Position numbers and translations under genes: made by a program. Under the pieces are notes generated by a model, which saw only the letters and a program-made list of their open reading frames with translations, was not told the origin of the DNA and ran no database searches. A stretch of 63,806 nucleotides of DNA, the filler included, from Hausera hauseri (lineage: Eukaryota), in assembly GCA_046269625.1 (NCBI GenBank). It is 11 parts of 11 records of this genome, joined end to end, with 100 filler letters (N's around TTAATTAATTAA, not from the genome) between each part and the next. Parts side by side here need not be neighbours in the genome. Positions count along the whole stretch, not along the records: positions 26,789 to 31,529 come from JBJURY010454134.1; positions 31,630 to 40,047 come from JBJURY010648774.1; 9 more parts are not named here. The stretch is one strand, 5' to 3'. Below, piece by piece: positions 1 through 48,996 of this stretch. How positions within the stretch are numbered: the stretch's first letter is position 1; every line of letters begins with the position of its first letter.

Positions 1-1070
1 AATATCTATCGGGTCTACACCCAATATTTCTAAATCAGTATTACTTCGATTGCTAACCGGTTTTTCTCTAAGCCGATTGATCATTGTATAATGTATTTTA
101 TCCATCTTACGTTCTAAGTTGCGGGCCACTCTTTTTAACTTCACGCCGACACTATCTTCGTCTTTACTCCATCCTAAAAATTCAACTCCACTTTTAATCC
201 ATGATTCTAATTTATGGTTCCATTTCATCAACGTATCCTGTAGTACATCTTTCGGTTGTCTCACTTCAACTGCTGTATCGGGTTTCTTTTTACTACATAA
301 TTTTAAACTCTTGTACAATTTCTCCGCAAATTGTTGTTCTTTACCAGATATATCGGTTTGTTTACTGATCTATTTAAGCCTTTCTAAATAGCGTCGGAGT
401 ATTTCTGGATCGTGACATCTAATTCTTATTTTCTTTAATCCATCGGCATTCTTCCACGAACGTCGAACCTTCCATTTTCTCGCATCCGGATCAGTATTAT
501 CTTCCGTTTCTTCCTCCCCTAAGGGAGGCGGATAAATTTCATTAATTTCATCATTGATATTTACTATCTCTGGTGTATCCAACGTTTCTACAGTCCTTTC
601 GGGCGTATCTAAGGGCGAGTTGTCTCTTAGCATAGCAATATAGAAATCTACTTTTTCTTCCACGTTTTCTTTATGGGAGATCTTGAGCGAATCTTGGATC
701 TTCTCTTAGGCGATGGGTTTTTATCTCTATTCTTCGTTATCTTGAAAACTAAGGGCCCAATAAATTCTCGTGGTTTATGTAATAATCTTACTGCTTCTAT
801 TAGGTCTGCTCTATGTTCTGGACAAATACCTAAGGTTTCGATATCCTGTTGTTTTGTCTGGGTTGTTCTTTTCGGATTCTAAGTCTAATTCTACATTCTA
901 AGATGCCGTTTGTTTCTCTGTTTGGGCTATTCCTCGCGGGACAAACTTCCTATGCGCCATATTCGTATATTTCTGTGCCAGTGCCCATTCTTCTTTGGTT
1001 TGTGATTTTCTCTGTCCGTGATAGACTTCCATTAGTTGCAATTTCTCTTCATATTCTTTTCTAGCCTTCA
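1..1070 (-). pseudogene. Degenerate coding region continuing downstream of the glycoprotein (unknown charged protein)
   Basis: ORF 370..663 continues in frame past one TAG to position 1 (ISKQTDISGKEQQFAEKLYKS...LGVDPIDI). 664-1070 is also coding-like with stops. No recognisable motif. Confidence 0.5.
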
Positions 1071-2938
1071 TTACCTGATGATTTGTAGTTTCGCATAGAT
1101 TTCGGCATGGCGTTCAACGTCATTTTTCCATCGTTTTTTTTCGTATGCTTTAAGCATTTTGCCTAACGGTATGATAATTGCGGTTAAGATTTTGCATGAA
1201 AATCCTGTTAATGTGAATATTTCGTAGCCATTTATAACCGCTTGGATCACCGCTTTTACTAGTTGTACCAAGAAACAGATGGCTAAAAATCCAGATGCGG
1301 CTTGTCCAAAAATTAATAATCTTCCCCATATTTTGTAGAGTATTTCTGTGGTTACCCGTTGGTAATGATTTGCACCCAACAGGGATTCTTATTTAGCCTG
1401 GTATTGAGTATCGTCTACTACTGATGCCATAGCTCGATTTAATTCGTGCGTCCGTTGTCGTGGAAAAGCGAGAAATTGTCGAAAAGTTTCAATTTCTTTG
1501 GGCCTGTAAATACCTTTTGGGATGTACCTTGAAACTTGTCATTTGTAATTCCTTTCGCTAAATTAGTTCCAGTTAGATTTTTGGGAATGATAGTGACACC
1601 TTCATTGAGTAAGCTAATCCATTCCGTTTCTCTACGTATAAACATTGGTTCGCCCAAACTTGCTTTGCAGTCCTTTAAGATTGTGGGTTGTGTCGCATTA
1701 TCCAGCAACACTCTGGTGATGGTCATGGCTAGACGTGGAGTATTCTGGTAAATTACAGGGAGTTCTTGCATACATCTTTTTCGACTTTAATTGGCACATC
1801 TCTTTTCTCGCATTCATATGTGAGTAAAACCTGGTTAGCAACTCGACCAAAAATTCCTTCTCTCATGGGAATAATTGGTGAGGCTAACTCAGGATTCGCA
1901 TAAATAAGAGCTAATTTTGTCCTCATAATTTCCACATTTAGTTTGCAATCGTTAGTTATCATTGTGAGGTATAGTTCGGATATTCCGACTTGTGCTTTAT
2001 AATATTAATAATCATCTCGGTTTTTCAGATAATCTTCGATTGGAATGTCTTGTGTTTCTACGTTGTATGTTTTCGCGTTTATCTCCGTTTCTGCGACGGA
2101 AAACGCTTCATAGTTAGTGGTCAGCATTACCACTTCACAACGTGAAATCATTTCCTTTTTTATGAATTTCAATTCATGTTGATCAGAGATTAATATCGTA
2201 GGTGTATGATACTCTGATACGTCTTCACATGCTCTTGAACTGATGTCGGATTTGTCTACGTATCGTTTTCCGGTGGCTTCATTAAATTTCAATTCTTTAA
2301 TCTTAATAAAATTACAGCCTTTTTCAGCAGGCGGTTCCGATATGACGACAGAACTTTTAAAGGCACAGGTTCCGTCCTGTATATGACATTTTTGTTTTTC
2401 GGTATATAGTTTAGTGACGCTATGGAACATCACTTTGTGGACTCGCATTTCCGATTCGTAAAAGTCTACTACTACTATGCTTGCTTCCAATCCTTTTCCT
2501 GTGTCGTATTTTGCTCCACTGCAATGCCCTTTATGCATACCTAGCCTTCCAACTACTAGGCATTTTTAGCTCCATACTATCCCATTTCAGTCTTTCGGTC
2601 TCTCTGGACTGCTTTCAGTGTTGTCTTTCCAAATTCATTGGGATCGGAGGAGTTGTCGGTTTAATTATTGAGGAGTGCCCGTGAATTAGCCAACAGTGAA
2701 AAATACTACGAGATCACTTCAGCATACATTCCATACCATCCAAAGATATCAATTCTTGTTGTTGATATAGGAAATAACTCTTTTCCTTTGTTTCCAATTT
2801 ATGTGGTCTGGCATCTTCACATGCTTCTAAATCCATTAGTAAGTATTTTTGTCCAAGCTTTAATCTATCGCAATCGTAAACGATGACGGCCTCCAACTGT
2901 TTTATCAACATCATTATGGTGAGCAAACTGATTATCCA
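1071..2938 (-). pseudogene. Chuvirus-like (Jingchuvirales-type) class III fusion glycoprotein / env, frameshifted
   Basis: Internal signal peptide WIISLLTIMMLIKQLEA, then VIVYDC...C, GHCSGAKY, MITNDCKL, QELPVIYQN, and the membrane region WGRLLIFGQAASGFLAICFLVQLVKAVIQAVINGY. The motif order matches chuvirus-type glycoproteins. Split over ORFs 2714..3058, 2005..2538, 1753..1962, 1439..1771 and 1071..1379. Confidence 0.8.
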
Positions 2939-4250
2939 ATTAGATTCGTTCTTTCGGTTGTTATTATCTGTTGTCGTTAGATTCCGTATAATGTCTCCGA
3001 GTCCATTATTACTGTACCTTTTGTCTTCTTCCTTGTCAAACAGCTTCGGCCAATTCACTTAGCAGGGAAGCTTTTTAGATGCTCTTCGCGCCGAACTTGT
3101 AGCTAGGTTTAGTTCATTTTCTCGATTTGAATTTGTCTTAATTGCCAAGTACAATAATACTTTTCTTAGTTCTTCTATCGTATTCTCCACCATAATCTTC
3201 TCAATTTCTGCGTCGTCAGTTAGGCTACTTTTTGACAGTTTAAAACGCGAACTTCTCATTGTTCTAGCTGCGTTAAATGTCGCCTTTTCTTTATTATACA
3301 ATACATCTCCGCGGGGACTTGAATAATTTACAACAAGTATTAAATTCTTCATTAACTCGCTAAATTCTTTATTGTCAGTGCTAAAGGTAGGAATAAACAT
3401 CTGTCTCAGTTCTCTAATTAGTTCTCCGTTATAGGCAACTTCTCCTCGGGGCTTCCTAGGTCTGCCGACTGGGCGTTTCGGTCTTGGAGCATTAACTGGC
3501 ATTCCATTTAGCGGTACTAGATTCTTGTCGTATTGTTCCTTGTCCTCATCCGTCTGTAAGTACTCGAAATACATTGCTGCATCTCGTACTCCCATGATTT
3601 GCCTTACGCATTGTTCCGTTTCGGCCTTCCTCGTGGCCTCTTCTTTTGTCTGTTTGTTGGCTATTATTATTACTATTTGATTTGTTTCATCAGCAATAAT
3701 TTTGACGTCTATTAATTGTTCTAAATTGTAAACTATTCTTCCTCTAAAGTAAAATCTGTAATTTAGCTCATTTGTTACGCCATTGTTTAGCATCCATTCT
3801 CTTACGTCCTTTACATAGGAGCGTGTAGTTAACACACATTCTTTTTCTTCCGTCAATTCGGATGACATCATTATTTTCATAGTTACCTCATGTTTATTCT
3901 TCAAGATTTTCGCATACTTCTTTACTAAAAGCTTCGGCACCGTGTTGTAAATCATGTTTTCACTGGAAAATTTAGTCAAAGTCGGAATGAGTTCTCTGAG
4001 CTTATTTTCAGTCATATTCACATTAATTCATTCCATCAAGACGTTCTCGGTTAACGCTGAGTTTAGGAGAATATCCACATTGAATTTCCTGTTCTGCGGA
4101 TACTGTTAGCGTTGAGATATGGGACGAAACGCGGAGTCTGTGAAACACCATTTATTTCAACGTCATGTTGTACATTAAAACGGAGTTCTCCTTCGTCGAG
4201 TTGGTGATTTGACCGCTTGATGATTTCTTCGGATTGCATTGTTGTCAAAA
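2939..4250 (-). pseudogene. Polyprotein region upstream of env, with ubiquitin-like domain (~3659-3889) and AT-hook (~3446-3487)
   Basis: ORF 3059..4021 is in frame with 2714..3058, separated by one stop. YRFYFRGRIVYNLEQLIDVKI resembles ubiquitin [30 protein letters not shown] is an AT-hook-like GRP core. Confidence 0.6.
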
Positions 4251-9789: not shown

Positions 9790-10672
9790 TTCTTATAGGT
9801 GCAGCCGCAAAAGACATTTCTGTGCGTGGAATCTAAATTTCGCATGGTACATGCAAACAATTTTGTCTGAATGTAAATTTGGAGTGTAATATATACATCC
9901 TAAACAGCATTTATTAGCTTTACTATTAAATGTGTTATGATAATAGCACACAAAAGATCGTGTAGGCGATGGTGACTGTTTCTGGAAACAGAACGAGTAC
10001 GATTATAACACTTCTTCGTTTAACCTATTATTCATATTATTTATTGTCTGTTGTAGTGCTAAATTTTCAGCGCGTAATTGGCTCTACTGTTGCTATATTG
10101 TTGTATTGAGTTGATTGTCTCTTGATGTTACCGCGGCTGATACAATCGGTTGGGAATTCAATTGTTGCACTTCATATGCTTTATAGGCCAATACCGATAA
10201 TTTATCCAACGCCGTAGATTCCTCATCAACGTTAAGAAGTGACCTAATTTGTATAGGCAACGCGTTTAAGAAATATCGGCGCAGAACGTCTGAATTATGC
10301 TGCTTAGTTACACCCAGCGTTTGTAAGTTAGTCAACGACGTACGCTGGAACTCATAAGGCTTTTGTGTACCTATTGCGTTATCATTAAAGAAGCGATGAA
10401 TTTTAGAGTCCATGGACGGCTCTGTAAGTTTTGAAACTGCATTGTAAAGCTGAGTATAAGGGTCGGCCTGCTGAAAAATAGCTATGAGACTGTGGATACA
10501 AGTTTTGATGTTGGTTAGCTTTAGCCAGAGGATCAGTAATGTCACAAGATTGAAGCCATAGTTGGTGAAACTGCAATTAAGTTTTGCTAGAATTTTGGTT
10601 GTCAGTAAAATATTCAGTACACTGAGATGGGCTTGTAGATTGCTCAGTAATCACATGAAATTTCTGGACCAT
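9790..10672 (-). pseudogene. gag: Gypsy gag with two CHCC-type zinc knuckles
   Basis: DPYTQL, IGTQKP and FLNALPIQIRSLL, then CYYHNTFNSKANKCCLGC and CMYHAKFRFHAQKC. CHCC knuckles are characteristic of the CsRN1 clade. Confidence 0.8.
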
Positions 10673-10848: not shown

Positions 10849-11703
10849 AATGTGGATACCACATCAGCACCCCCTGGTTTAGTCAGTTTTGCCAGGCCGG
10901 ATCCAACGAGGGTCATCTGGTGATCAGCACGTCTGTGGATTATAATCGAGAAGCATTATGTTTGGTATGGATTGTTCTACTTCTCTATTATAGGATGAAG
11001 CAATGTTGACGAAGCTCGCACTGGCAACGCTGTATCTTTCGGTACTGCCACGTAATGCAATGGACATAGTTAAAACAGTGAACAGTCCTTTTCTTTCCAA
11101 TTGACTTGGAGATTTTATGAATAACGATCTAATGAACTCTGGATATAGGCCGTAAATTGTTCGACAATTACTCCTTGGATGAGCTTGAAAAGCGTTTTGA
11201 TCAAATCATATGCCGATTTCTGACGAGTGAGTGCATTGGATCCTTCAATATATTGACGAATATACTCTGCTGAGAAAGTACAATGAGAATCGTTTGAACA
11301 ATCGTCGGTTTTTAACATTTTATTCGGTGGATGATAGAACGACGAATCACTATCATCACAATCGGATTTACGAGAACGTTTGTGAGATTTGTAAGAAGGC
11401 AAATTGTTTGGGCTATGAGATTTGTGAAAGAGACCTGTTTGTCTAAGTTGTGATGATTTGGATTTCTTACAATCATTCAAATCGACGTTAGCAGCACCGC
11501 AAGTCCCTAATGTATCGACTGCATCGTCGATGGAGAAATAAAATAACTTTTGGATTTCGCCGTGATGCAGATGTGGAACATAAAAATCGAATTGATGTTC
11601 TTGGACTATAAGACAACCAGTCTGTCCTGTGTCAACTGGTTGATAGAGAACTGTCGATCCTAAAGGATCTGTAACCGTTATGGAATATTGAACGTCTTCG
11701 CGC
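10849..11703 (-). mobile_element. 3' part of a pol-less satellite LTR element (ORF, PPT at 10864-10876, LTR start at 10863), homologous to 29470..31300
   Basis: Protein similarity to the contig 6 ORF (CGAANVDLNDCKKSKSS vs CGAATVDLNCFKKSKSS; PPNKMLKTDDC; C*SPDDPRW vs CWNPHDPRW), followed by AGGGGGTGCTGA|TGTGGTATCCACATT. Confidence 0.7.
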
Positions 11704-16475: not shown

Positions 16476-17221
16476 CCCGTTGGTAAGTCAATCGCTATAT
16501 TCGATAGTCTTTTCAATAAATCACACCCTAAAACGACGTCATCAGTTAACTGATCCATAATAGCGAACTCATGTCCAAATGATTGCCCAACTAATTGGAC
16601 TTCTGGATTCCACTTAAACATTGGTTTTGACGTTTGGCCAAAAGCTCCTGTGCTTCCTGGATCTTTCGTAGACGGTGGATATAACTGTCTTCTTAGTGTT
16701 TGCGGTATTGAATCATTTTTAATATAAGACATCTCAGAACACGTATCAATTAATGCGTAAACTTCCCAATCTTCGATAATGATTTTGGCAAAGGGTCTTC
16801 CTTCTATTACTGTTCCAAAACAATTTGATGCTACTTTCGAACGTTTATTCGATGATATTTTGTATCCATTGATACGAATTTCTGCGGAGGATACTATATT
16901 TTCCGATAGTTGTCTCAATTCTTCATTTAAGTATACTTCATTGTTTTCTACGTGGAATTCTTCCGTTTCATGAGTACTGATTAACGTTTCACGATTGTTA
17001 GTATGTAGTTCGTTATGTTGAATGGTTTTCAATCTTGGATTATCCCAAATTGTTGATCTTGTTTCGATATTTTTAGGTTCTCTTGGCAAATACAACATCC
17101 TAGGGTCATCCGTGGATTGTCGATGACACATTTTGCGTAAGATTCCATACCGCTTCGCTCCTTCGTAAGGATCTTCTACATTAATTGTTCTTTTATAGAT
17201 TTCCGTCTGATATGAGTTCAT
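16476..17221 (-). pseudogene. Retropepsin-type aspartic protease (start of retroelement pol), truncated by the contig end
   Basis: RPFAKIII...YALIDTCSEMSYI...GAFG...HEFAIMDQLTDDVVLGCDLL matches the retropepsin DTG(S) and ILGxDxL motifs. Confidence 0.8.
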
Positions 17222-19290
17222 AGATCGTTTGTCACAATCTTCACAGAATGGGGTGGTGCTTTGACCACCGAATACATTTTGTGACGGTTTATCCTAAAAA
17301 ATGCTTCTCCTCCCTTAGGCTCGTCATCATCCGTATTATTTCTTCTTGTAATAGACCTTTTAAGTTTTCGCTTCCGCAGGAAGATAGGTTTTCCTCTTCG
17401 TTTTCGATTTAAGTAACCGACATGCCGTTCCACGTCCGATTTCCATCTACTTTCTTCGTACGCCTTTAGGATTTTTCCAAAGGGCGTTATGATTGCGGTC
17501 AATACCTTACATGAAAATCCAGTTATGGTAAATATCTCCTATCCATTTATTACCGCTTGGATTACGGCCTTTACCATTTGTATCAGAAAATATATCGCTA
17601 AAAATCCTGATGCGGCTTGTCCGAATATCAAAAATCTTCCCCACATTTTATATAGTATTTCAGTTGTTACTAGTTGGTAATGGTTTACACTGATTAAAGA
17701 GTCCCATTTAGCTTGATGTCTGGTATCGTCTAATACTGAAGCCATCGCTCGATTTAATTCGTGCGTTCGTTGTCGCGAAAAAGCGAGGAATTGTCTAAAG
17801 GCCTCAATTTCCTTTGCTCTGTAAATCCCTTTTGACGAGGTGTCTTGAAATTTGTCATCTGTAATTCCTTTCGCTAGATTCGTTCCTGTTAATTTGTTTC
17901 GAGCGGCAGTGATACCTCCATTTGGTAAGCTAACCCAGTCCGTTTCACTACGCCTAAACATGGGTTCTCCTAAGCTTGCCTTACAATCCTTGAGAATAGT
18001 TGGTTGCGTCGCATTGTCCAACAAAACTCTCGTCAATGGTGTAGCTAATCTTGGGATGTTCTGATAAATAACGGGAAGTTCCTGAATATAGGGTTTTTCT
18101 TCCATATTGAGGGGTACGTCTTTCTTTTCACATTCGTAAGTTAGCAGTACGTTGCCTGTGACTCTACCAGAAATTTCTTCTCTTATGGGATTTATTGGGG
18201 AAACCAATTCCGGATTTGCATAAATCAATGCCATTTTAGTTCTCCTAATTTCCGTATCCAGTTTGCAGTCATTCGTTATCATTTTATGATATAATTCCAT
18301 TATTCCGACTTGTCCTTTATAGTAAAAGTAATCGTCTCTATTCTTCTGGTAATCTTCGATCAGGATATCCTGCGTTTCTAACTTATACGTTCTTGCATTT
18401 ATTTCTGTTTCTGCGACAAAAAATGCTTCGTAGTTGGTAGCGAACATTACTACATCGCAATGAGAAATCATTTCTTTCCTGATAAATTTTAGTCCGTGTT
18501 GATCCGAGATTAATATGGCGGGCGTAGAATATTATGATACATCTTCTCGCGTCCTCGAACTGGTTTCTGATTTATCCACATATCTCTTTCCCGTAGTCTC
18601 ATTGAACTTGAGTTCTTTAATTTTAATAAAATTACAACTCCTTCCAGAGGGAGGTTCCCATATTATAACCGAGCTTCTAAAAGCACAGGTTCCGTCTTGT
18701 AAATGACACTTTGGGTTTTTGGTATATAATTTAGTGACACTATGGAACATTACCTTTTGTGATCGCATTTCCGATTCATAAAAATCTACAACTACTACGT
18801 TTGGTTTTAATCCTTTTCCTGTGTCGTATTCTGCTCCGCTACAATGTCCGCTATGCATATCTAACTTTCCAGATATCACTTTGTATGGTCTAATTATTTT
18901 TCCGGGTTGCATTTCCAATTGTAGGCTATCACATTGTATTTTCCCACTTTCCTTGGCTTGTTTACAATGTTGACGTTCTAGGTTCATCGGATTAAGCCGT
19001 GTGGTCGGTTTAATTATAGAGGAGTGACTATGAATTAATCCACAATGGCAATGCTACGCGATAGTCTCAACATGCATTCTATTCCATCTAACGATACCAA
19101 TTCTTGCTGTTGATATAGAAAATAATTTTTTTCTCTTGTTTCCAATTTGTTTAGTCTGGCATCTTCGCGAGCTTCCAGATCCATTAGGGAGTATCTTTGT
19201 CCTAACTTAAACTTATCGCAGTCATAAACGGTCACAGCGCCTATGTGCTTGATCAACATCATTAAAGTGAGCAAGCTAATTAGCCTATTT
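17218..19290 (-). pseudogene. Chuvirus-like class III glycoprotein / env, second copy
   Basis: Colinear homologue of 1071..2938 (AVTVYDC, GHCSGAEY, SKGIYRAKEIEAFRQFL, WGRFLIFGQAASGFLAI), followed by a basic cytoplasmic tail. Confidence 0.82.
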
Positions 19291-20924
19291 GATTTGTTCT
19301 TTGACCTCCTACGTCTGACATTGTCAGGTTGCGTATCATATCATCCAGTTTATTGTTATTGCGTTTATCTTTTTCTTTCTCGAATAACTTTGACCAACTT
19401 ACTTCGTAGGGCAGTCTTCTCGCTGCTTTTTGTGTTAAGCTTATAGCTCTGTTGATTTCGTTCTCGCGGTTAGGACTTACTTTGATATCCAAATACAGCA
19501 AAACTTTTCTCAATTCTTCATTCGTGTTTTCTACCATGATTTTTTCTATTACTGACTCATCGGTTAAGTTACTTTTTGATAGTTTGAAACGTGAACTTTT
19601 CATCATATTTGCTGCATCAAATATTATATTTTCTTTATTGTCTAACACATCTCGAAAGCTGGAGTAATTTACAATTCGTATTAAATTCTTTATTAATTCA
19701 CTTAATTCTTCGTTATCTGGGCTAAGGGTCGGAATCGACATCTGTCTCAATTCTCTGATTAATTCTCCATTGTAGTCCACTTCTCGCATTATCCTAGGTC
19801 TGCCTACTGGACGTTTTGGTCTTGGGCCTTTCGGGGTTACTTCGCTTAGTGGTACTAAATTTATATCGTATTGTTCTTTATCTTCCTCCCTTTGTAAATA
19901 CTCAAAATATAGTGCAGCGTCTCGGACTCCCATAATTTGTCCGACGCATTCTTCTGCTTTAGCCTTACGTGTGGCTTCCTCTTTTGTCTGTTCGTTAGCT
20001 ATTGTGACCACTATCCGATTTGCTTCATCAGGAATAATTCCGACATCTATTAGCTGTTCTAGGTCGTCGAGTATTCTACCTCTAAAGTAGAATCTGTAGT
20101 TTAACTCATTTGTCCCGCTATTGTTTAATAACCATTCTCTCATCCTTTACGTAGGAATAAGTGGTTAATTCACATTCCTTTTCATCCATCCACTCGGATG
20201 ATACCATTATTTTTATCTCTACCTCTGGTTTTTTCCTTAAGATTTTAGCATATTTCTTTATCAAAAGTTTCGGCACCGTACTATAAATCGTGTTTTCGCT
20301 AGATAATTTAGTTAACGTTGGAATAAGTTGTCGTAGTTTAGTCTCAGTAATATTTAGGTTAATTAATTCCATCAAATCTTTTTTAGTTAGCGTTGAATCT
20401 ATTATCATTTCCACATTGAATCTCCTGTCTTTGGGACATGTTTCTATTTCGTTTAGGTGTACTGGAGTCATGGGTTCTCCGGTAAGTATTTTGTCGAAGT
20501 ATGCATCCCATTCGGGTTCGTTTTCGACATCCGCAAGTCGGTAGTCCACTAAAGCTGTATTGGCTGTTTGAATGTTTTCGCGAATTTCCTTTAGTTTAGG
20601 TTGTATTTTCATTTTCGTCGTTCGGAAACCTACTCCATTTCCGCAGGCATATTGAATCGTCTTCAATAATTCACCGAATTCGTTAGTCGATTAGCCCTTT
20701 TTGGTGATAATCTGTTAATTCGAGAATCACATCCTTTTGTCATCTTTGTACAAATTCTTGTTTATTCTTAATTTCGGACTCGGTAAAAGCATGTTTGTTT
20801 CGGTAGACTTCAAGTTCTTTTGTTATTTCGTCTAACCTTATCGCTCTTTGTTTTGTTTTAATACATGTTTCTTCTACTTTATGTATTCTGGGCATCAATT
20901 GTCTCATCTGTTCATCACTGATTT
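19280..20924 (-). pseudogene. Upstream polyprotein region, second copy (ubiquitin-like domain ~19995-20228, AT-hook ~19790-19830)
   Basis: ORFs 20118..20666 and 19280..20143 are a frameshifted equivalent of 3059..4021; contain YRFYFRGRILDDLEQLIDVGI and PKRPVGRPR. Confidence 0.65.
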
Positions 20925-27830: not shown

Positions 27831-29699
27831 ACATCATTAAAGAAAAAAATTAGCAAGTTCGGCTGATAAATTACTTTCAAGTGGGTTCAGATGAACTTTA
27901 ACTCCGTTATTATGGCAATAAGAACAGCTTTGATAGAAATCTCAAAAAAGTTCATAAATTTTCACATTATGTTTTCACGATAAAAACATAAAAATTACGA
28001 AGTTTTTGTAACTATACAGAAAAATTTTTTGTACCTGTTTCATGTGTAAAAAGTTTCATCTGAAAAACTTTCAATGTTTTTGAAAATCAAAAATTTTCAT
28101 TTTTGCGAAACACCTCAACATATATATTAGGGTGGTTCAAAATAATATGTTATTCCATTCCGTTTGAGGCAAATCGCGGTTCAGTGTCATTCGCTATGAA
28201 TTACTTATGTAGGGAATTTTAGCAGTCTACATTAAAGTTTACGGGACCTCTTAACTACTTTATCCTTAATATAGGAAAACTGAAATGAACTCCTTTAAAA
28301 GTTGGATATAATTATTTATCACTGCGCAGTTAGGCGTATTACAGAGAAGAAAGTGTACAGAAACAGAAACATTTACAGGACTATTGTCAGAATTAGAGAT
28401 AATATTATAATAAGAGATAATATATAAATATTAACTAGCGACTGGTCCAACGTCCATAAATTTAAATGAAAATTGATTTTTAAATTGAAGGCATATCTTT
28501 GGTGTGCTTTTCAATCACCTTCAGATGATACTGTTTCTGTGATTCGTCCTTAGTTAGAGAACTGTTAAACTCAGTCGAAGGAGCAATTATCCGTTCTGCA
28601 GTATCATTAACGACCTTCATGTCCTGTACAGCATCCCTAAACTCCTGATAAGTTGCATCATCCTCCCATGTTGTTGGTGGTGTTGTGAGAAAGGTTAACG
28701 ATCTTTGTTTTCCAACGGAAAGAATGCTGTCAAAGGAACTTCTTATTCGCTTGGTAACATAGTCAGAAATGCATGTTGCGGTGAAAACATTCTTGTCAAG
28801 CCTTTTAGTTTCTTGCCATCTTTATACTCTGGAAGGTCCAAGTTCTTGACCGTCTGTAGCTTTTCCTGTGGGCAGATGCGACTGTCAAAGAATTCCAATG
28901 CTACCAGCTCTTGTGACAGATACTATAGATGTCTTTTATAGGCATTGAGAGCCGCAGACATCAGTGCTGGATCAGGTAGACCCATTTGCAGCTCCTTTAT
29001 GAAGTCTAGACCGTTTTTTTGGAGCATGAGAAGCAATTGGTGCCTCATTCCAGTAAAAACAATACAGGAGATAAACGAAGAGACTGAGGTCTGTTACAAC
29101 TTTCAGTTCATTTTGGGACAGCTGTATCTGATTTCGGAAAACGAAGATATTAAGAGCATAGATAGCCTTTGCCATCCACCTGGCCTGATTGAATGAGCCG
29201 GGCGATCTGATATGCAATCCTCCTTCTGGCTGTGCTCCTAAAAATGCATAGGAAAAGACTAGCAGATCTTCTTAACCACCACGTGTATGGTGAGATGATT
29301 CGGTTGCTGACTTGAAGTACGCCACTGCTTTTTGTTTCAGCTGCACAAGGTTCCCTGTCTCTGAGAATCTTTCTGATAAAACAGGATCATCAAGTGAGGA
29401 ACACCAGTCATTATAATCAATAGAATGTCATCTTTCCTCGAACTTAATGAAGAATAGTACGTTCGGATTTGAAAGATTCGTTTTTACTTCGAATATATTC
29501 TAAAGTACCTGAATCTTCGAAATTCATGGTTTCAAAAAGAAAAAAGCTGCCATAATTTTATATTTCATTTGAAATTTTACAATAATCGTAAATACGAATA
29601 TTTAGACAACACATTTTTCAAAAAACGTTATATATAGTTATATATAGTTATTTTTTGGGTGGGCCAATGTGGGTACCACATCACTCCCCGCTGACAAAA

Positions 29700-31151
29700 C
29701 TAGGTTGCCGGGGGGACCCATCGAGGGTCATGTGGGTTCCAGCACGCCGGTGGTATTCGATCGCCGAGTATTTCATGTTTTGTATGGCCCTCAACGAGAC
29801 TGGAACAACTCCCCAGCAGCTGCTTTGTTGGTTTTATCATTTGAAACGCAATACCGTTGGAACGATTTTTGAATTTTGCTTTGCGATATTTGAATTCGGG
29901 GTCTCTCTGATTGTTTGGTTCGAAATAAATTGTAGTTGGAAATGTAGAAAAAGAACTCTCGCTGAACTTTGAAAGAGTTGGTGAGAATGTGCGATAAGAA
30001 CTGTACATACAATCGTCGGTTTTTAACATTTTGTTCGGTGGTTGATTGAATGGTAAATTGTTAGTATCACAGTCAGATTTTCGAGGACGTTTGTGAAATT
30101 TATGAAAAGGTAAATCGTTTAAGCTATGGTATTTGTGAAAGAAATTTGTTTGACTAAGTTCGTTATTATTATGATTATTTTATTGTTTTTTCGATACATG
30201 ACGATTTGGATTTCTTGAAACAATTCAAATCAACAGTGGCAGCACCGCAATCGTTATCGAATATTTTATATGGATCGACCGCTTTGTTGAAGCATATATG
30301 AATATGTTTATTAGTCAATGATGCTAATTGTTTATTCGGTGAATCGATTAACAAGGTTCTTTCGACCACTGTATACACTTTTCATTATCGCCACCATCAG
30401 ACTGTTTCACGTTCGGCCCAAGGTTATCGGCGACCAATATATCTTGACCCACCTGACTGTCGGACGTTTCGTTAGATTTAACCGTATCTGAATTTTGAAC
30501 GTACATATGGGTCTGTTGACAAGTTTCACCGACATTAAGACCTTTAATTTTATATTCCATTGATTTGCCCATAATTTCAATTTGAATGTTGTCGCCAATG
30601 TTACATAATTGTTCAAAAATATACTCACCTGATGGATCAGAAATAGTAAAAAAGTATTCATCTTCCGGTGGATATTTATTAATAACGTACAAATCACTTG
30701 GAATGTCATAATCGCCACTTTTTGTGTTGGAAGAAAGACCGAGATTTGGTGATTCGGCATTATGATTTTCGCTGTCAAACGTGTCGTTTTGTAGCAGTAA
30801 AGTTAATTCACTATTATATATAGTTGATGTTTCATCTCGAGATCGTAATAATTTAACGTACGACGAGATAATTTCCCGGTCAACCATCGGGTCTGTTATA
30901 TGCAAAAGGAAATTTTGTGCCTGGATGTACCGATCATTTGCATTGAAAATTTCGGCAACTCCATTAAGTCTCCCCAGAAAGTGTATCGGTAGAAGTGCGA
31001 AAAAAGATAAAGTTCTGTCTGTAGGAGTAATGAATTGACTGTAAGTCCATGTTTCATGTATTATTATCCATGGTAATGCGCTGCCGTTGTTGACAAAGAA
31101 CGGCGTGTGTGGAAAATGATGGTGGGTTCCAGAAACGACGGCTTCTGGCAT
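29700..31151 (-). pseudogene. Gag-N-terminal-domain paralogue fused to a beta-rich and a Ser/Lys-rich unknown region (frameshifted)
   Basis: PFFVNN..PWIIIHETWTYSQFIT...IFNANDRYIQ..ITDP aligns with the contig 2 gag EYFTDN..*LQFHQLWLQSCDIT...IFQQADPYTQ..LTEP. Spans ORFs 30348..31214, 30175..30378 and 29700..30029. Confidence 0.65.
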
Positions 31152-31167
31152 CCTACTTCTGACATCA
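31150..31167 (-). promoter_or_regulatory. Primer-binding site complementary to the tRNA-Leu 3' end
   Basis: TGATGTCAGAAGTAGGAT, 1 nt after the LTR CA; two mismatches to TGGTGTCAGAAGTGGGAT. Confidence 0.75.
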
Positions 31168-31806
31168 ATGAAAGATTCGTTTTTACTTCGAAATTTTACA
31201 ATAATCGTAAACACGAATATTTAAAAAACACATTTTTCAAAAAAATGTTATACATAGTTATATATAGTTATTTTTTGGGTGGGCCTATATGGGCACCACA
31301 GGACCTTTCGAGGGACCATATACAGACTTGGATACATCTGAAAGGATGATTTCTTGCATATGATGCCTTCAAGCAATCCACAAGAGATCCCTGCCCAAAC
31401 TCTGCTAAATTTTGACACAGACATTTTGAGAAAAACATGTATTGGATGCTGTTGTGTCGAACACTAGCCCCATTACCTGATCTTCTATTCTCCATTCCCT
31501 GAGTGCTGTACAACAGGCTCCTGATTAATNNNNNNNNNNNNNNNNNNNNNNNNNNNNNNNNNNNNNNNNNNNNTTAATTAATTAANNNNNNNNNNNNNNN
31601 NNNNNNNNNNNNNNNNNNNNNNNNNNNNNATCGAGTTGCAGTCTTATAGGCAACGGTTTTTTACTGTGAGATAAATATCATTGTTGGTGACACAGACGGT
31701 TTTTTTCTTGAGTGTCATATAGTTGATTTGCGACCACAGCTATTGCCAGCAATGATAGCTAATGAACAGTTGGACACGTATAATTACAATCATAAGTTAT
31801 GGAAAA

Positions 31807-46053: not shown

Positions 46054-48996
46054 ATGATGAACTCTGATTGTGCATGGGATAGCTCTTTTGATATTGTTTC
46101 TACCACTGATTCTACTTATATTTTCCCGGATACATTAGAGCAAAAGCTTCTTGACCCTAAGAAATTTTCTATATTCCATCTCAACATTAGGAGTTTGCAT
46201 CAGCATTATGACACTTTCATAGATTATCTTGCTTTTCAAAAGATACAGTTTGATTGCATTGTTTTAAGTGAAACTTTCCTGAATGAGTTCAATGAAGGAA
46301 ATTACCCAATTCCCGGATACACAGGAACACATATATATCGATTAAACAAACGTGGAGGTGGTGTGAGTATTTACGTACGAAATGAGTTATGCAGGGATTC
46401 CAAGCTTGTTTTCTCACTAATCAATGATAACATTGAAACGCTGGCATTATCGATAAATGTTGGTGACCTAAAACTCACAGTTGTTGGTATATATAGACCA
46501 CCTAACTCATCTCGAGTTGAATTCTTAGCCACTCTTGAACCACTAATTAGAGCTCACCTAAATGACACTAAAGCAGTTCTTGCAGGTGATTTTAATATTA
46601 ATGTCTCCAACTCTATCCCTTCAGCTGGCATCAACAACTTCATTAACTTGATGGTGTCTTATGGATTCATAAACTACATAACTCTGCCCACGAGAGTAAA
46701 TAGTAATAGCACTTCAGGCACGCTTCTGGATCACGTCTGGGGAAATTTACCCTTTGATGTAAGGTCCTACGTGATTAAAACTGACATTTCTGATCACTTC
46801 CCTTGTTTAATCAACTTTCCTATTAGACGTGGGCGTCAAGGTCAAGGTCGAGAACAATCCACTTTTAATTATAGATTGGAGAATGATATTAGTAGAGTAT
46901 CTTTTATTAGCAATATCCGTGCAGTTAATTTCTCGTTCGTGTTCAGTGACGCATTATCCATCAATAATAAATTTGAAGTCTTCATAAATTCTTTAAATGA
47001 AGCTTATGATAAATCATTCCCTATTAAAACTAAAAGAATATCCTCAAAAAGAATTCTAAACCCATGGTTAACATCTGGTCTGATTAGTTCAATAAAGCAA
47101 AAGCATGCTCTTTATCGCAATTTTAAGAGAGGAATAATACCGTTTCATCTCTACAATAACTATGACAAAAAGTTAAAAGGAGTTTTAAAGAAAGCCAAAA
47201 GAATGTATTTCAATGAAAAATTTAATGTAACTTTGAATGATCCAAAAGCAACTTGGAATATAATTAGCAAGTTAATAAATAATAAAAAAGCTTCAATCCC
47301 TCTCAATGAACTGAATATCTCTGGAGAAAAGTCAAATGACCAAAAAATAATTGCTGATGCACTGAATCATTACTTTGTAAATCTGGGTAATGAAACTCTG
47401 AAAAATAAACCTGAGAGTCGCTTAAACTTTGAGTCATTCATGTCACCATGCAGGTCTCTTTTTACTTTTAAAAACATAACTGCCTGGGATGTTAATAATG
47501 TCATATCAGGTCTAGTTAATAAGAAGTGCGATTTGTTGAGTATCCCAAATCACTTATACAAACTAATTGCTGACATTATAGCAGCCCCGCTCAGTCACTT
47601 GTTCAATGAATCCTTTCTCTCTGGCATATTTCCTAGTGTCTTAAAAACCTCTCGTGTAACCCCCATCTTCAAAAAAGGTGATCAATCTCTCCCACAAAAC
47701 TATAGACCAATTTCAATAACTCACACAATCAGTAAAATATTTGAAAAAGTCATACATAACCAATTAAACTTCTACTTCAGTTCAAATGATTTACTCAATG
47801 ATCTTCAATTTGGATTTACTAAAGATAGGTCAACAACGGATGCTCTCATTTGTCTAACGGAAAAAATCTATGGGAATCTTGAGAACAGAGACTCCTCAGC
47901 GTTGCTACTACTCGACTTCAGTAAAGCTTTTGATACAGTTGATCATGAAATTCTAATTAAAAAAATGAATTTAATGGGGATAGTCGGGTCTGACCTACAG
48001 TGGTTTCAAAGCTACCTTAAAGACAGAAAACAGTTTGTTAAAATTAGGGATACTTCTTCGAATCTACTTCAAATAACAACAGGTGTTCCTCAGGGTTCAA
48101 TCTTAGGTCCTTTGCTCTTTACGTTGTATACCAATGATTTTTCTAACTCTCATTCTTCTTTTTCGGTTTCTTTTGCTGATGATATATCAATATTGTTGAA
48201 TGACAAAAGTCCTGATAATCTTGCATTAAAAATTGAAAGCACGTTAACAAGAATCATGAGGTGGGTTGATGCTAACAAGTTGTCATTAAATTTACTTAAA
48301 ACATCTTACATTATATTTAGCAATAAGAAGGTTAACTTTAGCTTGAACGTCCAGATAAATGATAACCCTATCGAGAGAGTTCACAGTGCTAAAATACTGG
48401 GCGTCATATTGGATGAAAACTTAAATTTCAAAGATCACATCAATCAATTACTAAACAAACTAGCTAGGGGTATGTATATACTTGTGAAACTATCCAGAAG
48501 TGTTCCTCTACGAATCTTGAGGAAAATATACTTTGCCTATTTTCACACACACATCCTATATTGTCTCCCCGTCTATGGTGTTACTAACATGTCTAATTTA
48601 CGTCCAATTGTCGTTATGCAAAAGAAATTCGTACGTCTATTAGGTGGGTCTAGAAATTTTTATTGCCATACCAAACCTTTATTCAAAAAATTGAAAATAT
48701 TACAATTTTCGGATCTTGTTAATTTATCACTGCTCAAAGTAATGCATAAAATAATCAACAAGAAAACATGTACATTTCTTATGGAAAATTTTCAGCGACA
48801 TCAAACTCACAGACGAGAAAACCTTAGAAATAATTCTCTTATTAGCATCCCATACTATAGACTTACAAAAGCAAGGCAAAGTGCCATCTACATGTCTTCT
48901 AAATTATTTAACAAGCTACCTCAGGATATTAAAAATGAAACTTCTATTTCCTCGTTCTCAGGAAAAGTAAAAAAAATGGCATTTAGTTCCTATTAA
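46054..48996 (+). CDS. Intact non-LTR retrotransposon ORF2 (APE + RT), CR1/L2/Daphne-like group
   Basis: 980 aa. HLNIRSL, LSET, GGGVSIY, YRPP, GDFN and SDH (APE); NYRPIS, QFGF, DFSKAFD, GVPQGSILGP and FADD (RT). Confidence 0.96.
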   Translation: MMNSDCAWDSSFDIVSTTDSTYIFPDTLEQKLLDPKKFSIFHLNIRSLHQHYDTFIDYLAFQKIQFDCIVLSETFLNEFNEGNYPIPGYTGTHIYRLNKRGGGVSIYVRNELCRDSKLVFSLINDNIETLALSINVGDLKLTVVGIYRPPNSSRVEFLATLEPLIRAHLNDTKAVLAGDFNINVSNSIPSAGINNFINLMVSYGFINYITLPTRVNSNSTSGTLLDHVWGNLPFDVRSYVIKTDISDHFPCLINFPIRRGRQGQGREQSTFNYRLENDISRVSFISNIRAVNFSFVFSDALSINNKFEVFINSLNEAYDKSFPIKTKRISSKRILNPWLTSGLISSIKQKHALYRNFKRGIIPFHLYNNYDKKLKGVLKKAKRMYFNEKFNVTLNDPKATWNIISKLINNKKASIPLNELNISGEKSNDQKIIADALNHYFVNLGNETLKNKPESRLNFESFMSPCRSLFTFKNITAWDVNNVISGLVNKKCDLLSIPNHLYKLIADIIAAPLSHLFNESFLSGIFPSVLKTSRVTPIFKKGDQSLPQNYRPISITHTISKIFEKVIHNQLNFYFSSNDLLNDLQFGFTKDRSTTDALICLTEKIYGNLENRDSSALLLLDFSKAFDTVDHEILIKKMNLMGIVGSDLQWFQSYLKDRKQFVKIRDTSSNLLQITTGVPQGSILGPLLFTLYTNDFSNSHSSFSVSFADDISILLNDKSPDNLALKIESTLTRIMRWVDANKLSLNLLKTSYIIFSNKKVNFSLNVQINDNPIERVHSAKILGVILDENLNFKDHINQLLNKLARGMYILVKLSRSVPLRILRKIYFAYFHTHILYCLPVYGVTNMSNLRPIVVMQKKFVRLLGGSRNFYCHTKPLFKKLKILQFSDLVNLSLLKVMHKIINKKTCTFLMENFQRHQTHRRENLRNNSLISIPYYRLTKARQSAIYMSSKLFNKLPQDIKNETSISSFSGKVKKMAFSSY

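Follow-up and report, generated by a model that had tools for sequence, protein, structure and literature searches.

The genome of Hausera hauseri harbours a radiation of small long terminal repeat (LTR) retrotransposons that have no pol and that follow a family-level rule: the coding ends of their single open reading frame (ORF) are conserved, the middle is free, and the frame is kept. The interest lies in this rule, which, by holding cargo in frame, extends what has been described as LTR-mediated retroposition. One such element lies on the minus strand, from 31300 to 29470, of a 63,806-nucleotide stretch (the window, by which we mean the whole stretch of DNA that was analysed), which strings short contigs together with N spacers between them and is taken from an 869-Mb animal assembly of 909,086 contigs (GCA_046269625.1). 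The window element is a dead copy of a non-autonomous Ty3/gypsy-type mini-retrotransposon. An earlier note on this DNA had described it as a pol-less element encoding a fusion protein with a Gag N-terminus; that observation is mostly confirmed, and the group is larger than first described. Each element likely needs its own protein, or the translation of it, to ride on full-size elements.

Anatomy of the window element

The element measures 1831 bp and is read in one frame. Its 5' LTR (31169..31300, minus strand, 132 bp) opens with the shared TGTGG head and lacks 80 bp, including an LTR-borne in-frame ATG; the 3' LTR (29470..29680, minus strand, 211 bp) retains this ATG (29527), which in family copies is in frame with the primer-binding site (PBS) and the ORF. 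The two LTRs are identical at 122 of 130 aligned bases. The PBS (31150..31167, minus strand) lies in the ORF frame, overlaps an ATG at 31151, and agrees at 16/18 bases with a common PBS that has 324 exact occurrences in the genome. The earlier reading of this site as a leucine PBS holds for the PBS itself; its tRNA-Leu name is one that we presume, and no tRNA gene was found within the window. A polypurine-tract (PPT)-like run (29681..29692, minus strand) precedes the 3' LTR.

Between 31151 and ~29700 the frame spans 484 codons, 267 of them open, and is broken by two frameshifts (near 30380 and near 30200) and by a further break at the tail, in keeping with the degenerate ORF of ~480 codons first reported. 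From its N-terminus, and on the minus strand throughout, it comprises a Gag capsid N-lobe (30867..31151, residues 1-95) followed by neither C-lobe nor zinc knuckle; a low-complexity linker (30714..30866); a beta-rich module A (30304..30713), frameshifted near 30380 in this copy; the end of a B-type domain with a basic Ser/His/Lys tract (30009..30303), common to families C, D and F and frameshifted near 30200; a C-terminal block (29745..30008), common to families F and G; and a tail, C-WxPxDxRWVPPG (29700..29744). The ORF map leaves no room for pol and Pfam returned no match to it. For the middle of family W itself, the analysis found no parent gene in the host.

The element is bordered by GGATT and GGACC, which represent a real 5-bp target site duplication (TSD): the copy at 31301..31305 (plus strand) is identical to the empty site, and that at 29465..29469 (plus strand) has 2/5 bases changed. 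The flank is a repeat with 40 other matches in the genome, and the target 5-mer is present singly in 10/11 uninterrupted copies of it (8 exact, 2 with one change). Because this 5-mer borders both ends, one copy with two changes, the element was inserted as a unit, as originally proposed, and is old. The interrupted sequence is a multi-copy, DNA-transposon-like ORF (28480..29464, continuing at 31306-31529, minus strand). The earlier note described it as a hATm transposase; Pfam searches gave no transposase match, and 'hATm' is a presumed label.

A radiation of families with a shared architecture

A genome search with the first 267 residues of the window ORF scored at least 148 matches, some of them partial and from sister elements. 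Copies of the window family are 82-91% identical at the DNA level, and some stand in tandem with a common LTR. Searches and fetched contigs together revealed at least seven pol-less families, with internal lengths of ~0.7-1.5 kb. Families W (the window's), E, F, G and H begin with the capsid lobe and have different middles, whereas families C and D begin with a 70-residue, beta-rich B domain and have no capsid lobe. The build is nonetheless shared: a start codon often within the LTR, a PBS that is read through, a conserved front domain, an exchangeable middle, and the tail WxPxDxRWVPPG directly before the PPT in all family groups whose 3' ends were seen. One sister element, L062, has a perfect 5-bp TSD. 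Helpers are present in the form of autonomous elements with the same LTR head and PBS: in L276 the same PBS is followed by gag and protease, and the autonomous element in contig 2 of the window has the LTR head of the pol-less elements.

Contig 2 also holds a family C sister element (10864..11703, minus strand), comprising B domain, basic tract, exportin-2 piece, tail and PPT, and followed by an LTR and a decayed gag-pol element. This copy belongs to another family than the window element and carries an in-frame piece of exportin-2. The proposed match between the beta-rich segments of the two elements did not survive: module A and the B domain are different domains, with only 33 matching columns at a probability of 79%. 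In sister elements, module A forms the 3' end of LTRs, behind host pieces (SANBR, actin-like protein).

Several further observations concern LTRs and leaders. Across L031-L046, LTRs with a module A end hold differing host pieces, namely SANBR, an actin-like one and, nearby, CLU_N, and several of these share the frame of module A; for some of this cargo we presume the names Spt20 and Arp10, Pfam having returned just SANBR, actin and CLU_N. In L229, L231, L092 and L097 an open frame starts deep in the LTR and runs through the PBS, reaching the tail in L229 (446 codons), L231 and L092; LTR cargo can therefore extend the protein N-terminus. At L052:1429-1455 the 5' LTR consists of just a 13-bp palindromic head with the PBS directly after it, in tandem behind the 3' end of another element. 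The autonomous-type leader of L250, L272, L275, L276, L282 and L283 has ~20 more bases past the 18-base PBS, which we take to resemble a tRNA T-arm's complement, so that pairing with the primer would be extended.

Selection on the open frame

Evidence that the frame is maintained comes from changes shared among copies (those present in at least three), with seven duplicate loci excluded from most counts. In the ORF frame, 12/754 shared changes are stops; the five remaining frames give 196/3607 (p 7e-7), and private changes give 130/2806 (p 5.5e-5). Family W alone shows the same deficit (7/325 versus 93/1552, p 0.004). Indels in multiples of three make up 5/7 of the shared class, 23/117 of the private class and 2/11 of those shared in LTRs; these counts are small, and two of the seven shared indels are deletions in the reference copy. 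Furthermore, the last 60 nt upstream of the PBS contain an in-frame ATG at 34/57 B-type and 31/52 lobe-type sites, compared with 6 and 3 (B-type) and 9 and 0 (lobe-type) in the other two frames. This LTR ATG is often placed six codons before the PBS, across unrelated LTR ends.

The N/S ratio (nonsynonymous changes over synonymous ones) tells a different story. Among shared changes it is 2.36 in frame and 2.28 in the other frames, whereas the gag control gave 35/89. In the middle, selection shows on the open frame only.

These data bear on the explanation that there is no current selection at all, the frames having been inherited from a few lucky masters and from captured coding DNA, and the ends having been kept as RNA or DNA signals. 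The ratios near 1 in the middles (given below), a stop deficit for exportin-2 that is weak by itself, and a tail that adjoins the PPT would all fit such a history. It is contradicted by the pooled stop and indel tests, by the ATG frame bias across unrelated LTR ends together with the codon-position bias of the tail, and by the random frames of one-off captures, and we consider it very unlikely.

Selection on amino acids

Ratios of nonsynonymous to synonymous substitution rates (dN/dS) were computed from natural copies only and family by family, leaving 'other' loci aside; some within-family values are inflated by frameshifted stretches. A pooled value for the lobe (0.61) mixed two families and was replaced by per-family values. 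The autonomous gag control gave 0.28. Within families, dN/dS was 0.88-1.08 for the linker (0.93), the module A core, the basic tract, the C-terminal block, the exportin-2 piece and the middles of D and E. The back half of module A came out at 0.71, and front domains ranged over 0.55-1.0. The value near 1 that the earlier note had named as refuting its reading was thus found within families over most of the ORF (0.93-1.08 for linker, beta module, basic tract and C-terminal block).

Comparisons between families look very different at the protein ends. With within-family divergence subtracted, net dN/dS for the lobe is 0.17-0.35 in 6/6 family pairs, all intervals lying below 0.7, and for the B domain it is 0.35-0.50 (C versus D, 0.35). 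Module A gives 0.48; values for the basic and C-terminal blocks run from 0.59 to 1.36, and their intervals include 1. Between families, the third codon positions of the tail differ at 0.61, as against 0.30 and 0.28 at the other two (bootstrap gap 0.13-0.49); this test used 60 tails in five groups and dropped those with a displaced twelfth codon. Judged from these alignments, lobe and tail are conserved as protein between families, while the middles drift within them. The past selection previously read from conservation accordingly holds for lobe and tail and is not supported for the fusion protein as a whole. Lobe conservation and the third-position bias of the tail together mean that the protein was needed, at least in the past.

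Identity and origin of the capsid lobe

Residues 15-100 of the window ORF align with the N-terminal capsid lobe of the genome's autonomous gag at an HHalign probability of 95% (E 2e-8, 27% identity over 86 columns), which bears out the Gag N-terminus noted earlier. The autonomous gag itself has a weak DUF7041 match (7/13 members, best E 0.004). An AlphaFold model of the lobe is helical (predicted local confidence score, pLDDT, 74). A Foldseek search with this model gave no capsid match; a wider structural aligner placed capsid lobes in all of the top 17 positions, at Z scores of 4.9-7.6 that, being below 8, are modest and do not distinguish N- from C-lobes. The best matches were PEG10 (Z 7.6, root-mean-square deviation 2.8, 67 aligned), Arc (7.5) and the Ty3 N-lobe (5.8). 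The match ranked fourth is an Arc N-lobe with bound peptide, which raises the idea that the conserved tail might be a ligand of the capsid lobe.

The protein is not an ordinary full Gag: a C-lobe follows the capsid N-lobe in 0/67 pol-less elements, compared with 36/39 autonomous ones. In a tree of 32 rows without an outgroup, pol-less and autonomous lobes are split with support 100/100 and separated by 1.86 changes per site. By these sequence comparisons the window family is no recent deletion of a sampled autonomous family.

Homologs were sought both with an open copy as it occurs in nature and, among longer proteins, with the alignment of the lobe; none was found, word-based searches being weak here. 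An Atlas search gave a first match at 0.84 for the ORF and no usable match for the B domain, and PDB sequence searches returned nothing at E <0.3. Foldseek, run with the model of the B domain (pLDDT 66) against PDB and viral libraries, gave no match at E 0.001. A HMMER search of 1.84 billion proteins with the B profile produced 3 hits, which were rejected as summed short matches to ankyrin or Ig-like repeat proteins. We also rejected the B domain as a decayed protease: the DTG of one copy is not conserved as a motif, and the B profile matched 0/30 autonomous gag loci.

Host-gene cargo and in-frame fusions

The exportin-2 piece of the contig-2 sister element occupies 10985-11268 (Pfam Cse1, E 3e-7) and is 85% identical in DNA to the host gene. 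In the long form of family C, 912 bp of host exportin-2 are joined in frame at both ends, giving 454-455 open codons in L218 and L226; in the short form, to which the contig-2 copy belongs, exportin-2 is internally deleted with the frame still kept. In L227 a B domain is joined in frame to a kinase (496 codons). The host exportin-2 gene (L215, G000:C780647) has no introns and consists of one frame of 955 codons; its identity to named orthologs from animals is ~40%. As to signs of retrocopying, this parent gene already lacks introns, and just a few bases are common to the joints.

When exact PBS sites were chosen without regard to the ORF (n=41), 6 ran into a lobe, all in frame 0, and 6 into an autonomous-type leader. 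Most of the others ran into one-off sequence, in which the host pieces named by Pfam were out of frame (TTI1 in frame 2, cyclase and CH in frame 1). Across 40 exact-PBS loci (L247-L286), ~2/3 of PBS run straight into unrelated, often host-like coding DNA (TTI1, cyclase, CH domain). This suggests that the rate of mRNA capture at the PBS is very high. Another host piece captured in an LTR possibly lies at 10096-10647 of the window (minus strand), where an ORF that spans the LTR and gag start of the autonomous element in contig 2 weakly matches MT-A70 in Pfam (E 0.005, below cut-off).

Other features of the window

Three further features of the window lie apart from these elements. The contig at 11804-16375 is a 4.5-kb degenerate TTCG/TTCT tetranucleotide array; a 980-codon open frame lies between ATT-rich repeats at 46054-48996 (plus strand); and two contigs (1-4250 and 16476-20924) are ~76-77% alike over several 300-bp blocks, contain decayed minus-strand ORFs, and are probably related retroelements.

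A proposed model for cis preference

Stops are purged from the variants that copies share, which, by the argument set out in PMC9073684, implies that each RNA benefits from its own ORF. The protein may well act in cis, bringing its own RNA into the particles of full-size helpers; we infer both its binding and its expression, and regard this as an even call. Translation would start in the LTR end or just past the PBS and run to the PPT. Helper Gag would then be contacted, with the ribosome still on the RNA, by the emerging capsid lobe (other families having the B domain in its place), by the tail, or by both, and the encoding RNA would thereby gain an advantage in packaging or stability. The middle would serve as a spacer, swapped by template-switching of the reverse transcriptase, with only in-frame products able to amplify. 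More broadly, we tentatively propose, as a reading that falls short of even confidence, a distinct class of protein-coding satellite retroelements, whose 'boarding pass' protein would give its own RNA cis preference for helper capsids and would consist of a domain for docking, either the capsid lobe or a new beta domain, linked to the conserved WxPxDxRW tail.

Several of our own results sit uneasily with this proposal, as do data from other systems. The lobe is dispensable for the design, since families C and D have none. Within W the lobe is without significant constraint (dN/dS 0.81, 0.62-1.06); its shared N/S of 33/19 does not differ clearly from the private 131/45 (p 0.16), and 3/55 of its shared changes are stops. 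Tail and PBS are in the same frame in only 21/41 complete elements (p 0.014), and a frameshift close to where the ORF begins is common to 5/19 D copies. The stop deficit is weak when exportin-2 is taken by itself (0/76 shared changes, ~3.6 expected), and in its short family it is 2/90 shared stops with ~4.7 expected. The loci were chosen by protein searches, which favour intact frames, although this bias looks small because private stops (4.6%) occur near the other-frame rate (5.4%). Finally, Ty1 RNA is reported in excerpts of PMC3945221 and PMC4974528 to be packaged well in trans, and mini-Ty1 to need no ORF, which argues that cis preference is not general.

It is possible, though to our minds doubtful, that only the act of translation matters today, the ribosome crossing the RNA from LTR to PPT and the protein being a by-product, as in coronavirus defective RNAs; escape from nonsense-mediated decay, or arrival at assembly sites, are examples of how this could work. 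The near-equal shared N/S in and out of frame, the within-family dN/dS of middles and front domains, and the interchangeability of the front domains are all as this explanation expects. Consistent with it, a long ORF aids defective RNAs of mouse hepatitis virus (MHV) even if chimeric, according to the available portion of PMC8255065. It accounts less well for the strong amino-acid conservation of the lobe between families, for the third-position bias of the tail, and for a lobe model that seems to retain the capsid fold.

The protein might instead work in trans, helper particles being poisoned or redirected by it as a capsid decoy or restriction factor, in the manner of Ty1 p22. A lone capsid lobe on a bulky tail does have a dominant-negative shape (for p22, see the part of PMC4599808 that describes it). 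A decoy would bring no gain to its own copy, however, and stops would spread with the copies, where instead they are purged; nor was a single fixed, domesticated locus seen, the copies being dispersed and decaying. We therefore rate a decoy as improbable. The comparison with p22 and Fv1 made in the earlier note likewise fits poorly, because selection shows on variants shared among transposed copies.

Relation to known systems

Comparisons with published systems draw on the portions of each paper that were available. In its working, the design that we propose is likely closest to mouse IAP IΔ1, an animal, non-autonomous element with a single fused ORF that opens with Gag and a product reported to promote retrotransposition in cis (PMC6466679, PMC10924933). 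Both maintain an in-frame fusion ORF in amplified copies. IΔ1 is described as a simple in-frame gag-pol deletion of its helper, whereas here the lobe and helper Gag have only 27% identity, foreign sequence that can be exchanged makes up the middle, the tail is dedicated, and some families are without Gag; the long separating branch and the lack of any B or A profile match in 30 autonomous gag loci speak against direct deletion of a helper gag-pol.

The label 'TR-GAG-like' used earlier fits loosely. Plant TR-GAG elements likewise measure <4 kb and have LTRs, PBS, PPT, a 5-bp TSD, one ORF, no pol and multiple copies (PMC4350172). The size and the single ORF are found here too, but TR-GAG, as described there, encodes a Gag precursor (capsid and nucleocapsid), in place of which we find a capsid N-lobe alone, ~80% of the ORF being non-Gag. 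The elements are thus neither plain TR-GAG nor a simple gag-pol deletion.

LTR-mediated retroposition, including maize Bs1, resembles the present case in that host mRNA pieces replace the interior and chimeras re-amplify as non-autonomous elements (PMC5131818); frame keeping is not reported there ('in frame' occurs 0 times in the main text), whereas the amplified families here maintain the frame of their cargo, which lies between coding ends that are fixed. Defective interfering RNAs of MHV (PMC8255065) are also helper-dependent and selected for a long open frame whatever it encodes, but they are non-integrating RNA-virus replicons, and here there is amino-acid constraint at both protein ends. 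TRIMs, such as tapeworm ta-TRIM and the modular families of sugar beet, are small and helper-dependent, with tandem arrays and module shuffling (PMC4558846, PMC13570524); ta-TRIM has a tRNA-Leu PBS too, but no ORF >120 codons in its published description (PMC4558846), whereas here coding runs throughout. Drosophila telomeric elements also take up host pieces, with a proposed piRNA role in the text available (PMC13534243), and mammalian MaLRs are called non-autonomous, with two vaguely Gag-like products, in the passage on them in PMC4724089.

No published description of this design was found in the open literature, subscription journals being mostly outside that coverage. We presume that mammalian MaLRs have a single gag-like ORF.

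Implications

How cis preference could work in LTR retrotransposons is posed as an open question in the relevant section of PMC9073684. The families described here isolate that question, since they need no enzyme and yet have kept a presumably translated frame with conserved ends, and they offer a minimal setting, found in nature, for telling what the protein does from the effect of its translation. The window copy itself is dead and shows no sign of a host function. If our proposal is true, in-frame filler of any kind is tolerated, and the class would therefore be a permanent device for joining host coding sequence in frame, with the fusions amplified to tens or hundreds of copies. The families also display exon shuffling that keeps the frame and that is driven by selection on the element, and translatable chimeric genes would arise at a higher rate as a result.

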